Positions 11,187 to 51,235 are shown, counted from the stretch's first letter. The stretch is 64,000 nucleotides of DNA from Dehalococcoidia bacterium (GCA_034421015.1 DAOUKT010000013.1:5965-69964); one strand, 5' to 3'. The notes: generated by a model not told the origin, from the sequence alone. A program made the numbers and translations.

Positions 11187-11383
11187 GGGGACATTTGTAT
11201 AATTGCGGCATTGCTCCCAAAAGAAGCGTTCTAACTGTCATTCTGAACGGAGCGCAGCGGAGTGAAGAATCCAAAGCCTTTGCCCGCGAAGCTGCGAAAT
11301 CTTCAATTAACCCCTTTGGATTCTTCGCCTTCGGCTCAGAATGACATTCAACGGAGCCAACGCGCGGGTTACGCAAAGTCTCC
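11187..11383. mobile_element. MITE-like element inserted in a REP loop
   Basis: Ends ggggacatttgtataat and gttacgcaaagtctcc form an imperfect inverted repeat. Flanks are ggattcctgc-TTTC and CTTC-gcgggaatgac, i.e. a split REP with its loop duplicated. Confidence 0.6.
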
Positions 11384-11437
11384 CTTCGCGGGAATGACGG
11401 TGACTTGTCCCTCTGACACAAGCTATCCAAGGGTCTC

Positions 11438-12448
11438 CTATCTGGCGTCTGCGCCTTCCGCAGCCTTGGCCCTTGGGTGAGCCTTCAGGTACTCCTTGCG
11501 GGACTGGGCAAGGCTCACGTGGGTGTATATCTGCGTGGTGGCCGGCGACGAGTGGCCGAGCAGCTCCTGCACAATGCGCAGGTCGGCCCCGCCGTCCAGC
11601 ATGTGGGTGGCGAAGGTGTGCCGCAGCATGTGGGGATGCACCTTGGTGTCCGTGGACTGGATGCTGTATTTCTTGACCATCTCCTGGACGGAGCGCTTGG
11701 TGAGACGGCCCCCAGACTTGTTGAGGAACAGGGCGTCCGTCCGCCGACCGCCCAGCTTCGGGCGGCCCTCGTTCAGATAGCGTTCCAGGGCCTCTTGCGC
11801 GGGCCTGCCGAAGACTACCTCCCGCTCCTTGGACCCCTTGCCCACAGTCCGCACCCGTCGGCGCGCCATGTCCACGTCCTTTGTGTCCAGCCCGGACAGC
11901 TCGCTGACCCGCAGGCCTGTTGCGTAGAGCACCTCCAGGATAGCCCTGTCTCGCAACTGCATGGCCGGGGCCTTGGGCCTGCCCTTGGTCTCCGGGTCGT
12001 CCGGGGTGGTCAGCAGTTCCTCCACCTCCTCCTTGCCCATGATGCGGGGAAGCGTCTTCTCAGCCTTGGGTATGAGCGCCCTGGACTGGCGGCTGCCACG
12101 CTTCCAAAGCGGGCTGGGAGGCACAACGCCCCTTCTTACGAGATAGCGGAAGTAGGAGCGAAGGGCGGCCAGGGACCTCGTCACGCTTCCCCGGTCGTGG
12201 CCGCGCTTGGTCTGCCCGCGTCCGGTTTCGATGGAGCGGTCGGACATGAGCCAGGCCACGTAGCGTCGCAGAAAGCCGCGGTCTACGCCAGACAGGGACT
12301 CCATGCCCTGCTCCTCCATGAACTGGAAGAACGGGTCAAGGTCGTTCAGGTAGTTGCGGACGGTGTATTCGGACAGGCTGCGCTCGCCGCGCAGGTGGTC
12401 CCGGTATTCCTGCAGGTGGCCCTGCTCCCTCACCGGAGAGGATGTCAT
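11438..12448 (-). CDS. xerC: Chromosomal tyrosine recombinase XerC/XerD type
   Basis: Catalytic residues in LRVSE, GKG, HMLRH, LGH and TQIY; conserved dprA-topA-xer order. Confidence 0.85.
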   Translation of the reverse strand: MTSSPVREQGHLQEYRDHLRGERSLSEYTVRNYLNDLDPFFQFMEEQGMESLSGVDRGFLRRYVAWLMSDRSIETGRGQTKRGHDRGSVTRSLAALRSYFRYLVRRGVVPPSPLWKRGSRQSRALIPKAEKTLPRIMGKEEVEELLTTPDDPETKGRPKAPAMQLRDRAILEVLYATGLRVSELSGLDTKDVDMARRRVRTVGKGSKEREVVFGRPAQEALERYLNEGRPKLGGRRTDALFLNKSGGRLTKRSVQEMVKKYSIQSTDTKVHPHMLRHTFATHMLDGGADLRIVQELLGHSSPATTQIYTHVSLAQSRKEYLKAHPRAKAAEGADAR

Positions 12449-17983: not shown

Positions 17984-18390
17984 ACCATTCCTGCACAGGG
18001 AGGCCATTGCGTAACTAAGGCGGCTTCTTGGAGGACCTACGTTTCTCGTCATTCCCGCGAAAGGAGACCTTTACGTAACTACGGCGGCATCTCGGAGGCA
18101 ATACGTTTATCGTCATTCCCGCGAAAGCGGGAATCTAATTCCTTCTATATCGAACCTCCTGGATTCCTGCTTCCGCAGGAATGGTCGGGAGGCGCTCGCC
18201 CCAAACGAGGTTATTCAAATGTCTCCACAGGCAGGAATCCAGGCCGGGCGAGTGGCGCCGAAGAATCCACAGCAATACTCGGCTGCGACGTAGTGACATC
18301 CTCAACCGGCAGCCTGTCGCGACGTAGGGGCGGTTCGCGAACCGCCCCTACTCTTTATTGACCATTCCTGCGGAGGCAGGAATCCACGCG
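17984..18390. repeat. Intergenic REP/MITE mosaic between divergent-strand ars promoter and acyl-CoA ligase
   Basis: Several CGTC-type REPs, a partial MITE (from ~18000), a full MITE (18063-18226) and a GTAG REP (18324-18351). Confidence 0.85.
18063..18226. mobile_element. 164-bp MITE-like element inserted in a REP loop
   Basis: Imperfect TIRs ggagacctttacgtaac and gttattcaaatgtctcc. Flanks cattcccgc-GAAA and ACAG-gcaggaatcc. Interior homologous to 22897-23056. Confidence 0.65.
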
Positions 18391-21758: not shown

Positions 21759-22898
21759 GTGAAGAGGCTGGCAATACTGGGTTCCACAGGCTCAATAGGA
21801 AGGCAGACCCTGGACATTGTCCGCGCCTTCCCGGACGAGTTCGCCGTGGTCGGGCTGTCGGCGGGGAACAACTTGGACCTCCTGGCGGAGCAGGCGGCGG
21901 AGTTTCGACCGCAGGTTGTCTCCTGCGAGGGGTCTCCCGAAGCTCTCGCGCCCAGGCTTCCCGCAGGCTGTCAGATAGCCGGCCACGACGACGTCGCTGC
22001 CCATCCGGACGCGGATATGGTCATGGCCGCCAGCGTCGGGAAGGCGGGACTCTCGCCCCTCATGGCCGCGATACGCGCCCGGAAGACCGTTGCCCTGGCG
22101 AACAAGGAGCCTGTGGTCATGGCCGGGCACATCGTCATGGGCGAAGCGGCCCGTCTCGGCGTGGACATCCTGCCCGTCGACAGCGAGCCGAGCGCCATCT
22201 GGCAGTGCCTCCGCGGGGAGCAGAGGGACCTGTCCAGGGTGGTGATTACGGCCTCCGGCGGGGCTTTCAGGGACCGCCCCCGGGAGGGGCTGTCCGGCGT
22301 CACGCCGGAGGAGGCGCTCAAGCACCCAACTTGGAGCATGGGCAGGAAGATCACCATCGATTCCGCAACCCTGATGAACAAGGGCTTCGAGGTTATAGAG
22401 GCGCGCTGGCTCTTCGACCTGCCCTGGGAGAAGATAGACGTTGTTGTGCACCACCAGAGCATAATTCACGCAATGGTGGAGTTCGCCGACGGCTCTGTGA
22501 AGGCGCAACTCAGCCCCCCGGACATGCGCCTGCCCATCCAGTGCGCCCTCTTCCACCCACAGCGAGTGGAGAACGGCGCGCTGCCACGATTCAACCCCGT
22601 GGAGACGGGGGCCCTCACCTTTGGCGCGCTCGACATGGACAGGTATCCGTGCTTCCGGCTCGCGCTGGAGTCTGGCAGGAAGGGGGCGACCTACCCGGCC
22701 GTAGTGAGCGCCGCGGACGAGGTGGCCGTGGAGCTTTTCCTGGACCGTCGCATCGGGTTCACGAGCATCCCGGACCTGGTGGAGGACGTGCTGTCCAGGC
22801 ACGTCCCCGTGTCCGAGCCGGGCCTGGAGGACATCCTGCACGCGGACGATTGGGCCAGAGAGACGGCCCGCGCCTGGGCCGGCGGAAGTCGCGGGTGA
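21759..22898 (+). CDS. dxr: 1-deoxy-D-xylulose 5-phosphate reductoisomerase
   Basis: LGSTGSIG, LANKE, PVDSE.SAIWQ, TASGG.FR and HP.WSMG.KITIDSATLMNKG.EVIEA motifs. Confidence 0.98.
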   Translation: MKRLAILGSTGSIGRQTLDIVRAFPDEFAVVGLSAGNNLDLLAEQAAEFRPQVVSCEGSPEALAPRLPAGCQIAGHDDVAAHPDADMVMAASVGKAGLSPLMAAIRARKTVALANKEPVVMAGHIVMGEAARLGVDILPVDSEPSAIWQCLRGEQRDLSRVVITASGGAFRDRPREGLSGVTPEEALKHPTWSMGRKITIDSATLMNKGFEVIEARWLFDLPWEKIDVVVHHQSIIHAMVEFADGSVKAQLSPPDMRLPIQCALFHPQRVENGALPRFNPVETGALTFGALDMDRYPCFRLALESGRKGATYPAVVSAADEVAVELFLDRRIGFTSIPDLVEDVLSRHVPVSEPGLEDILHADDWARETARAWAGGSRG

Positions 22899-23056
22899 TA
22901 CCTTTGCGTAACTATGGAGGTATCTTCAGGGAAGTACGTTTATCGTCATTCCCGCGAAAGCGGGAATCTATTTCCTCCTATATAGGACGCCCTAGATTCC
23001 TGCTTTCGCAGGAATGGTTGGGAGGCGCGCGCCAATTGAGGGTATTCAATGGTCTC
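22897..23056. mobile_element. 160-bp MITE-like element
   Basis: Ends gatacctttgcgtaac and ggtattcaatggtctc; interior REP pair homologous to 18063-18226. Confidence 0.6.
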
Positions 23057-23082
23057 CTCATGAGAAATGGAGGAAGCTAGCC

Positions 23083-24204
23083 ATGCTGGGCGGTCTGATA
23101 GTGGTGGCGGGCTTCATCGCCATCCTGATGATCCACGAGGGCGGCCACCTGGTCGCGGCCAAGGCCTTTGGGATGAAGGCCACAAGGTACTTCCTGGGCT
23201 TCGGGCCTACGCTGTGGTCCTTCCACCGCGGCGAGACTGAGTACGGCGTAAAGGCGATTCCCGCGGGTGGGTTCGTGACCATCATCGGGATGAACCCCCT
23301 GGAGTACGTCGCCCCTGAGGAGGAGGGCCGCGCCTACAGGGGCAGGCCGTTCTACCAGAAGTCGGTGGTGGTCATGGCGGGTGTTGTCACCCACTTCGTG
23401 GTGGCGTTCATCCTGATATGGACGGCCAACGTGCTCATAGGCCGGCCGGACCCGGACACTCCGCTTACGGAGGTCGCCAGGGTTGTGCAGGAGACCGAGG
23501 ACGGAATGCCAACGGCCGCGGTGGAGGCGGGGCTGATGGCCGGGGACAGGCTGGTCGCCATGAACGGCGCGTCCGTCGAGAGGTGGAGCGACGTCACGGA
23601 GGTCCTCAGGGACAACGCCAACAGGCCCGTGCGTATCCAGGTCGAGCGAGACGGAGACATTCTGACCCTCAGCGGGACGCTTACCTCGCGCGTAGACCCT
23701 GACACGGGCGAGGAGACGGGTTTCCTGGGCGTGTCGCCGAAGATTGGCAGGGCCCGGGACAACCCGGTATCCGGCGTCGGAACCGCGGCCGGCAGAGTCG
23801 CCTACTTCACGTGGCTCAGCGTCAGGGGAATATGGGAGCTTGTCAGCAACTTCGGCAGCTTCTTCAGCGCCGTGTTCAGTGACGACGACGAGGTGATGGA
23901 GGAGGCTCGGCCGGTGAGCGTCATAGGCATCACCCAGTTCGGGGCCGCTACCCAGAGGTCCGGTTTCAACTACACCCTGGAGCTCATTGCCTACGTCAGC
24001 GTGTTTGTCGGCGTGCTCAACGCCGTGCCTCTCTACCCCTTCGACGGGGGCCACTTTGCAGTCGCCATATACCAGAAGCTGACGGGGAGGCAGCCGGACA
24101 TCCGCAAGCTGGCGCCCGTGGGCGCGCTGGTGTTCTTCTTCATAGTCATGGTCGGCGTCCTGGGCGTCTACTTCGACATTGCCCGTCCCCTGGACTTTGG
24201 CTGA
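23083..24204 (+). CDS. rseP: Site-2 (M50) intramembrane metalloprotease with PDZ domain
   Basis: HEGGH zinc motif, GLMAGDRLV PDZ, LNAVPLYPFDGGH; start set at MLGG (23083). Confidence 0.93.
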   Translation: MLGGLIVVAGFIAILMIHEGGHLVAAKAFGMKATRYFLGFGPTLWSFHRGETEYGVKAIPAGGFVTIIGMNPLEYVAPEEEGRAYRGRPFYQKSVVVMAGVVTHFVVAFILIWTANVLIGRPDPDTPLTEVARVVQETEDGMPTAAVEAGLMAGDRLVAMNGASVERWSDVTEVLRDNANRPVRIQVERDGDILTLSGTLTSRVDPDTGEETGFLGVSPKIGRARDNPVSGVGTAAGRVAYFTWLSVRGIWELVSNFGSFFSAVFSDDDEVMEEARPVSVIGITQFGAATQRSGFNYTLELIAYVSVFVGVLNAVPLYPFDGGHFAVAIYQKLTGRQPDIRKLAPVGALVFFFIVMVGVLGVYFDIARPLDFG

Positions 24205-51102: not shown

Positions 51103-51235
51103 TTGGATGCCTGCCTTCGGAGACCTTGGAATAACCTCAGTTGCGGTGCGCGCCTCCCGACCATTCCTGCGGAAGCAGGAATCCAGTGTCCTTGGGGCTA
51201 GGGAAAATAGACCCCTGCCTGCGCAGGGGTGGTCT
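51103..51235. repeat. REP cluster with one MITE end (from 51119)
   Basis: ggatgcctgc-CTTC then ggagaccttggaataac TIR and MITE-homologous interior to ~51186; a further REP lies at ~51212-51235. Confidence 0.65.

Follow-up and report, generated by a model that had tools for sequence, protein, structure and literature searches.

A MITE in a Dehalococcoidia genome that probably derives from an IS5-family element aimed at hairpin tips and carries its own REP targets

REPs count among the most frequent repeats of bacteria and are generally assumed to be spread by RAYT enzymes; the biology of RAYTs and REPINs has been described (PMC3116915, PMC2817692). REP-specific ISs have long been known in the IS3, IS110, IS4, IS256 and IS5 families (PMC1525189, PMC3184786). 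The IS3-family elements IS1397 and ISKpn1 were shown experimentally to transpose specifically into the palindromic units, or REPs, of enterobacteria (PMC3184786, PMC1525189). ISPpu9, ISPpu10, ISPa11, ISPsy8 and ISRm19 of the IS110 family, as well as ISRm22 of the IS4 family, occupy a fixed position in the REP, an association described as ‘type 1’ (PMC1525189, PMC12288879). IS110 elements rely on a DEDD recombinase guided by a bridge RNA (PMC11208160). ISNm1106 is enriched in REP-containing spacers (4 of 7 and 7 of 14 copies), in a loose ‘type 2 association’ (PMC1525189), and the Neisseria dRS3 repeat has the pattern ATTCCC-N8-GGGAAT (PMC3898611). IS5-derived MITEs are also already known (PMC4596501). 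BrickBuilt and other MITEs of Porphyromonas gingivalis share GAGACCTTTGCA-type TIRs with resident IS5-family elements (PMC4596501), and GAGACCTTTGCA is the published TIR of ISNme1, an IS5-family element of Neisseria (PMC4596501, Table 2).

The window considered here is a stretch of 64,000 nucleotides (GCA_034421015.1, DAOUKT010000013.1:5965-69964) from a 2.29-Mb Dehalococcoidia MAG of 38 contigs. A sequence-only reading of it had singled out a 164-bp element at 18063-18226, preceded by another left end starting near 18000, as well as a homologue at 22897-23056 and a lone end at 51119, and all these sequence features are indeed present. The segment 18063-18226 aligns over its full length with a family of 164-bp repeats, represented in the genome by 28 full-length copies and many partial ones, as detected by BLAST. 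The termini of this element are GAGACCTTTG...CAAAGGTCTC, with two REP hairpins in between. Its 164-nt consensus starts with GGAGACCTTTGCGTAACTACGG and finishes with CAACTGAGGTTATTCAAAGGTCTCC, the TIR GAGACCTTTGNNTAAC being present at either end; REP1 reads ATTCCCGC-GAAA-GCGGGAAT and REP2 ATTCCTGC-TTCC-GCAGGAAT. The element is short, non-coding and multicopy, with TIRs and flanking target duplications, which are the features of a MITE. Most copies are old, with a median pairwise identity of 83% and 98% for the best pair. Many of the 38 contigs start or stop within one of them, and in practical terms the MITE copies are thus the breakpoints of this short-read assembly. An Rfam search of the repeat returned no family, as the sole hit, at 21 bits for a gathering score of 66, falls below threshold and is ascribed to chance.

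Termini were located throughout the genome by their match to GGAGACCTTTGNNTAAC, with at most 2 mismatches, which yielded 153 of them. The true limits of the element were given by covariation. The outermost G/C of ‘GGAGACC...GGTCTCC’ changes together with the last base of the adjacent REP arm: where the arm ends in C, the base beyond the loop is G in 88 of 89 termini, and where it ends in T, this base is A in 11 of 14 (Fisher p = 2e-11). This base is the partner in the closing base pair of the REP and therefore belongs to the target, the element itself being bounded by GAGACC...GGTCTC. Ends placed at GGAGACC...GGTCTCC, which would imply a duplication of 4 bp identical to the loop, are not compatible with this covariation. 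The target duplication in this genome is 6 bp long and consists of the 4-nt loop plus the closing base pair. IS5 itself makes a 4-bp target duplication, a length that differs both from the 6 bp found in this genome and from the 5-8 bp seen across the IS copies described below.

The enrichment in REP loops suggested by the sequence-only reading could be quantified. Exactly 4 nt past an exact TTCCNGN arm lie 79 of the 153 termini, compared with 0.17% of genome positions, which amounts to a roughly 300-fold enrichment; with one arm mismatch allowed, the count rises to 103 of 153 against a 2.1% background (binomial 8e-134). Chance cannot account for these figures. In 79 of 83 cases, 4 nt separate the arm from the terminus, and about one third of the termini have no recognisable adjoining REP. 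Among 36 paired elements, the flanking tetramers are identical in 13 and differ by one base in 6 more. Most of the other pairs display REP halves with unrelated loops on either side, as expected after exchange between copies. Relative to asymmetric REP flanks, no preferred orientation is observed (28 versus 25 left ends, 10 versus 8 right ends). An arm at a fixed distance from two thirds of the termini could also mean that the REP half-sites are parts of the mobile element itself, which would then be arm-bounded and insert anywhere without splitting any target. This is scarcely credible, given that the 4-nt loops vary between copies and agree within a copy, as target duplications do, and that the base adjoining the terminus covaries with the arm. 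Copies devoid of arms also exist, such as the one between dxr and rseP, the genome retains 219 intact, uninterrupted REPs, and members of the same IS clade are flanked elsewhere by CCCCC..GGGGG, CCCTCTCCC..GGGAGAGGG or TCCCCGA..TCGGGGA. The half-sites are thus best read as the two sides of a split target.

It had been proposed that a MITE carrying REPs would create its own targets, and about 31 of the 153 termini do lie in REPs of other copies. REP1 is the nested target in 15 cases and REP2 in 16-17, with either orientation of the incoming copy; a few of the low-scoring cases may correspond to plain REP doublets. A complete Russian doll is found on contig C10 (C10:3611-3938), where positions 1-63 of the outer element and GAAC are followed by an inverted inner copy, then by GAAA and the remainder of the outer element.

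The window locus at 17985-18240 is more intricate. Its outermost layer is a split host REP, the left half of which (17985-17999) comprises the arm CCATTCCTG (17985-17993) and CACAGG (17994-17999), and the right half (18226-18240) a second CACAGG (18226-18231) and the right arm CAGGAATCC (18232-18240). The whole composite 18000-18225 sits in the loop of this REP with CACAGG on both sides, and the rejoined flanks, CCATTCCTG-CACAGG-CAGGAATCC, form an ordinary REP for this genome. Upstream of the 164-bp copy lies a second left end (17999/18000-18062, consensus positions 1-63), which stops in the REP1 left arm plus GAAA loop, at the exact start of the next copy. The composite can be divided into three blocks, all on the plus strand. 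The first 64-bp left-end unit (18000-18063, consensus 2-65) opens with the left TIR GAGGCCATTGCGTAAC and finishes with the REP1 left arm GTCATTCCCG and CGAAAG. The second 64-bp unit (18064-18127) extends from the left TIR GAGACCTTTACGTAAC up to GTCATTCCCG-CGAAAG. The common right part (18128-18225) contains the REP1 right arm, a spacer, REP2 (ATTCCTGC-TTCC-GCAGGAAT, 18163-18182) and the right TIR ending in GTTATTCAAATGTCTC, in the order CGGGAATCTAATTCC...ATTCCTGCTTCCGCAGGAAT...GTTATTCAAATGTCTC.

The likely origin of these blocks was traced through their closest relatives. The two left-end units are only 78-85% alike. The first is best matched by the outer element of the complete doll (C10:3612-3673, 92%) and the second, of a different subfamily, by C8:24744 and C22:122043 (95%); being closer to other loci than to each other, they came from two different copies. 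The right part is nearest to the C10 outer element (94%), with the final 40 nt identical, and its REP1-proximal third resembles C15:38403 and C35:18627. At 18063/18064, one copy has inserted into the REP1 loop of another, at a junction of the transposase type. An intact 164-bp copy within a truncated outer one had been described here, which is only approximately correct. The outer left end and the final 40 nt of the right end match the C10 outer subfamily, and the inner left end another one; the locus is therefore a mosaic derived from a nested insertion.

A local tandem duplication of the left end (18000-18127), through slippage or unequal exchange between neighbouring REPs and with no nested transposition, would also place the 64-bp units head to tail, each after a REP arm and a 4-nt loop, the arm being included in the repeat unit. 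Such an event is highly unlikely, because each unit is closer to its relatives elsewhere (92% and 95%) than to its neighbour. Moreover, the junction falls exactly at the insertion point used by the family, 4 nt beyond the REP1 arm and directly followed by the TIR; other, unrelated outer copies show the same layout at C35:18627-18851, C15:167434 and C26:38945; and the inner copy is inverted at C10 and C38. Nested insertion remains the preferred origin of the doubled left end. Of the two right-hand parts expected after such an event, only one is left, and it is the mosaic one. Nested copies could be simplified by homologous recombination between their directly repeated right halves, or by transposition from the outer left end together with the inner right end. 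The segment 18000-18225, with its two left ends, one right end and one 6-bp duplication, would be the remnant of a nested insertion processed by one of these routes; the mosaic right part favours recombination over alternate-end transposition. The segment C35:23867-24155 mirrors this structure: a full copy is continued by positions 60-164 of a second one, and the composite is bordered by GCAG within a further REP.

At the orthologous position in two congeners (G002 and G005), where the flanking genes are 74-86% identical, neither REP nor MITE is found, and the spacer is too diverged to be taken as a clean empty site for the 18000 locus. Of two neighbouring proteins looked up in other assemblies, one has no record, and the other is encoded on a contig of 2.4 kb which ends short of the repeat. 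The window also contains, at 18323-18351 and 3' of a CoA-ligase-like gene, the perfect 28-nt palindrome GTAGGGGCGGTTCGCGAACCGCCCCTAC. It is 100% conserved in the orthologous spacers of these two congeners (L113, L114), but its surroundings are not, and it occurs twice in G005. This palindrome may be a terminator or belong to another repeat family.

A filled site and its empty counterparts could be compared at a second locus of the window. The sequence at 22897-23056, noted earlier as a homologue, is an 83%-identical family copy of 160 bp on the plus strand, located between dxr and rseP, without any REP around it and with a degenerate left TIR, GATACC. The search for an empty orthologous site proved positive: the copy is absent from the dxr-rseP junction in all six congeners, which reads ...GCCTGGGCGGGATAG-GTCGAT-ATGCTGGGCGG. 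The two genes are 7-10 nt apart in the six congeners, versus about 200 nt in the window, MITE included. As the junction is empty in all six, the copy was gained in the lineage of the window. The site lies outside any REP and lacks a clean duplication, and therefore says nothing about the targeting rule. The MITE remodels the ends of both genes (window 22880-23085). Translation of dxr now stops at a TGA (22896-22898) that extends into the degenerate left TIR, and the dxr C-terminus is unlike those of the six congeners; rseP now comes after new sequence with a GGAGGAAG ribosome-binding site, in place of the 7-nt TAG-GTCGAT-ATG spacer of the congeners.

The lone right end also turned out as described, at 51119/51120, directly after GGATGCCTGC and CTTC. 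It belongs to a one-ended copy on the minus strand (51120-51227, consensus positions ~56-164), which retains the right TIR, REP2 and a variant REP, without a left end, and adjoins a REP half plus loop (51105-51119, GGATGCCTGC + CTTC + G). All four occurrences previously listed for the window are there, but the list was incomplete, since 11188-11382 and 11438 have to be added. The former is a second-family MITE on the plus strand, with the same termini and a different palindromic core, which is inserted in a REP loop (GGATTCCTG-CTTTCG / element / CCTTCG-CGGGAATGA). The latter is the lone terminus of a third end-sharing family (11400-11438, minus strand, GGAGACCCTTGGATAGCTTGTGTCAGAGGG).

At least two more MITE families of about 195-222 bp are found in the genome, with the termini GAGACCTTTG..TAAC and the cores TGTCATTCTGAAC...GTTCAGAATGACA. 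Such same-end families occur at C20:21550-21771, C12:49304-49525, C22:34857-35053, C22:41278-41474 and window 11188-11382, and they lie in REP loops too. Since the termini are common and the cores different, identical ends carry exchangeable cargo across these families. A hairpin module of about 24 nt (e.g. GCTTGCCCCGTACCCCGATACGGGG) occupies the REP1 or REP2 loop in some MITE copies (C24:52250-52437, C37:144457-144643, C28:~71890-71915, C35:~24085-24115), the other copies having a plain 4-nt loop. As the module takes the place of the plain loop, a second, much smaller inserting unit exploits the same REP loops.

A transposase flanked by the same TIRs, called for by the sequence-only reading, was found in a genome of the same genus, within a 1188-bp IS (L017/L032) that encodes a 322-aa IS5-family DDE transposase. 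In G006, this IS (L017, 1327-2514) begins with GGAGACCTTTGAATAAC, ends with GTTATGCAAAGGTCTCC and contains this single protein. It sits in a REP loop with a perfect duplication, as seen from its flanks GTCATTCCCG-CGAAAG / element / CGAAAG-CGGGAATC. The protein matches the IS5-family model NF033581 with 278 bits (cut-off 140), PF01609 (DDE_Tnp_1) with 102 bits and PF05598 (DUF772) with 92 bits; a search of protein databases for names of its relatives returned only unnamed metagenome proteins. A scan of species-representative genomes yielded 80 IS loci, all from MAGs of Dehalococcoidia or other Chloroflexota except one on a 2.5-kb contig labelled Latescibacterota. The TIR pairs are 1187-1269 bp apart in 79 of the 80 loci, and the consensus of the IS termini is GAGACCTTTGC(A/G)TAAC...GTTATTCAAAGGTCTC. 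Congener G004 harbours five copies that are 100% identical over 1188 bp and all at different sites, from which a recent movement of the IS in that genome can be deduced.

No match was obtained when the assembly of the window itself was searched with the PF01609 profile, compared with many in relatives assembled from long reads. Likewise, tblastn of the transposase against this genome detected no gene, just IS ends of 89 bp and 103 bp at contig ends. Contigs C14 and C28 end with nt 1-89 of the IS, 98.9% identical to the G004 IS and including the start of the transposase, ATGCACCGAGAGATGGG; there the IS interrupts a MITE copy in its REP2 loop. The other end of the IS, its last 103 nt, opens contig C25, beside a matching REP2 right arm. 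The genome of the window thus very likely holds the IS in an unassembled form. Current activity in this strain is unproven, because the MITE copies are mostly old. The 98.9% identity of the IS end (C14:39002-39090, C28:72081-72169) with G004 (L033) can be set beside the 78-87% of flanking housekeeping DNA; over these 89 nt only, it hints at a recent horizontal movement of the IS between species. TIR pairs separated by 250-6000 bp in the same genome, between which no transposase was found, are either chance pairs or two MITEs bracketing ordinary genes. Among them, C20:21550-23935 was discarded as an autonomous element, as it contains ABC-transporter genes and no transposase.

The IS copies reveal more about the target than the MITE does in a single genome. 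With repeat lengths counted from GAGACC...GGTCTC, 23 copies have perfect flanking repeats of 6 bp, 8 copies have repeats of 8 bp, 4 of 7 bp and 3 of 5 bp, the length being partly ambiguous where stems made of C/G runs resemble the GG/CC neighbours of the element. In the hairpin cases, the complementary stem begins directly beside the flanking repeat. REP halves of the present type are found at both sides of 42 of 79 IS copies; others lie in other palindromes, and the association does not extend to every copy. Depending on the genome, the palindromes used are ATTCCYGC..GCRGGAAT, CCTKCCCCC..GGGGGMAGG, CCCTCTCCC..GGGAGAGGG or TCCCCGA..TCGGGGA. In G001/OZ253584, the repeats around a single IS of 1191 bp with identical ends measure 8, 6 or 5 bp, depending on how far apart the arms are, and the uninterrupted REPs of this genome have 4-7 nt between their C and G runs. 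The identical G004 copies have duplicated 6 bp where they lie in REPs, and 7 bp at a site that is not palindromic. Insertion is always centred on the dyad, with a variable stagger. Several IS copies in other Chloroflexota lie between a loop and its reverse complement (TGCG/CGCA, TTTC/GAAA, GTGC/GCAC; L068, L070, L071, L041, L062, L094), with the same polarity in 3 of the 4 copies of one genome. A special mechanism was discarded for these inverted pairs, as recombination between copies in oppositely oriented REPs gives the same result; it explains the pairs, not obviously the polarity bias.

Taken together, it is very probable that the 164-bp repeat is a MITE of the ~1.19-kb IS5-family IS, that it targets hairpin tips and that its REP cargo supplies it with new targets. 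The MITE would be an internally deleted, non-autonomous derivative of the IS, and the DDE transposase would act in trans on any DNA held between these ends. Integration is aimed at the tip of short G+C-rich palindromes, here REPs of the form ATTCCYGC-N4-GCRGGAAT. The two strand-transfer points would lie symmetrically about the dyad axis, so that repair would duplicate the loop and the closing base pair, 6 bp in this genome. Each insertion would remove one REP and add two, as a consequence of which copies come to land in one another. Of this picture, the family with its ends, the position and duplication of the target, the partner IS, the empty site and the nesting are observed, and mobilisation in trans, recognition of a structure and the way in which the window locus was simplified are deduced.

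How the tip is recognised is less clear-cut. A duplication of 5-8 bp that tracks the arm spacing suggests that the two halves of the transpososome each take their position from one arm of the target, which would be a hairpin, a cruciform or DNA distorted in some other way, with no fixed B-DNA stagger. It is the duplication lengths, and these alone, that would argue for such structure-based recognition. The broader proposal, in which transposases of this IS5 clade read a hairpin or cruciform form and not a sequence, the duplication follows the loop, and the MITEs multiply REPs in a lineage lacking RAYT, is put forward as tentative. It is also possible, though doubtful, that targeting is sequence-specific, a lineage-adapted transposase binding both REP arms as double-stranded DNA within a symmetric transpososome that centres on the palindrome. 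This would fit with the symmetric target preferences that many DDE transposons have, with the finding of distinct combinations of IS variant and REP in different genomes, and with the lack of an orientation bias among insertions. However, a rigid complex on B-DNA should yield a single duplication length, and the same IS in G001/OZ253584 gives three of them according to arm spacing, just as identical G004 copies give 6 bp in REPs versus 7 bp elsewhere. If the transposase does read DNA shape, it would offer a tractable hairpin-guided enzyme of the classical cut-and-paste type, and shape reading would account for the growth of mosaic repeat arrays in intergenic regions.

The question of how the REPs themselves spread in this genus was also considered. 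None of the seven genomes of the genus (G000-G006), 4 of which are closed, has a match to PF01797, the RAYT/Y1 transposase family, and the control search gave matches in 6 of 14 reference genomes. Out of the 219 intact REPs, 126 lie in copies that keep the TIR-proximal part, 84 in doublets with a MITE-like spacer and no recognisable TIR, and 9 stand alone. This distribution is consistent with a spread of the REPs as MITE cargo, and does not prove it. The doublets could instead be REPINs spread by a RAYT, the IS5-type ends having merely captured one of them, in which case the MITE would be irrelevant to REP spread. The REPs nearly always form inverted doublets with a conserved spacer, as REPINs would, and the 84 in doublets without recognisable TIR could be accommodated in this way. 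This origin is unlikely, in view of the lack of PF01797 throughout the genus, against a positive control, and of the 126 REPs within copies retaining the TIR-proximal part. In this genus, REPs are abundant without a RAYT, most of the intact ones being inside, or resembling the remains of, an IS5-type MITE that targets REP loops. If the MITEs are indeed the vehicle of the REPs, the transposon would produce the sites into which it inserts, and the process would reinforce itself.

A literature search found neither an IS5-family clade combining positional hairpin-tip targeting with a loop-dependent duplication, nor a MITE carrying its own target as cargo, nor either of these in Chloroflexota. The nearest described relatives can nevertheless be compared with the present elements. 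The ends, likened to those of IS1106 in the sequence-only reading, match the ISNme1 TIR GAGACCTTTGCAAAA in the first 12 nt, 12/12 (PMC4596501, Table 2), and as with the ISNme1/IS1106-type elements of Neisseria and their ATR MITE, an IS5-family IS has given rise to MITE derivatives. The dRS3 pattern ATTCCC-N8-GGGAAT also fits the C-variant of the present REP. In contrast to the loose association of ISNm1106, the present one is positional, with the same REP point used and the loop duplicated, and the host belongs to a different phylum, Chloroflexota. Among annotated plasmid-borne IS5 transposases, the nearest are at most 43% identical to the one found here. In the terms of Tobes and Pareja, the elements show a ‘type 1 association’, though not in 100% of copies. 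IS1397 and ISKpn1 differ in belonging to the IS3 family, and no REP-carrying MITE or self-nesting is reported for them in the literature searched (PMC3184786, PMC1525189). The REP-specific ISs of the IS110 family differ too, the present element being a classical DDE one with TIRs. BrickBuilt is similarly an IS5-derived MITE with variable flanking repeats (PMC4596501); its cargo is a minisatellite instead of REPs, and hairpin-loop targeting and self-nesting are not described for it. Finally, the likeness to REPINs and RAYTs lies in the cargo, an inverted REP doublet with a conserved spacer and a high copy number, whereas here the doublet is bounded by IS5-type TIRs, flanked by target duplications and housed in a genus without RAYT.
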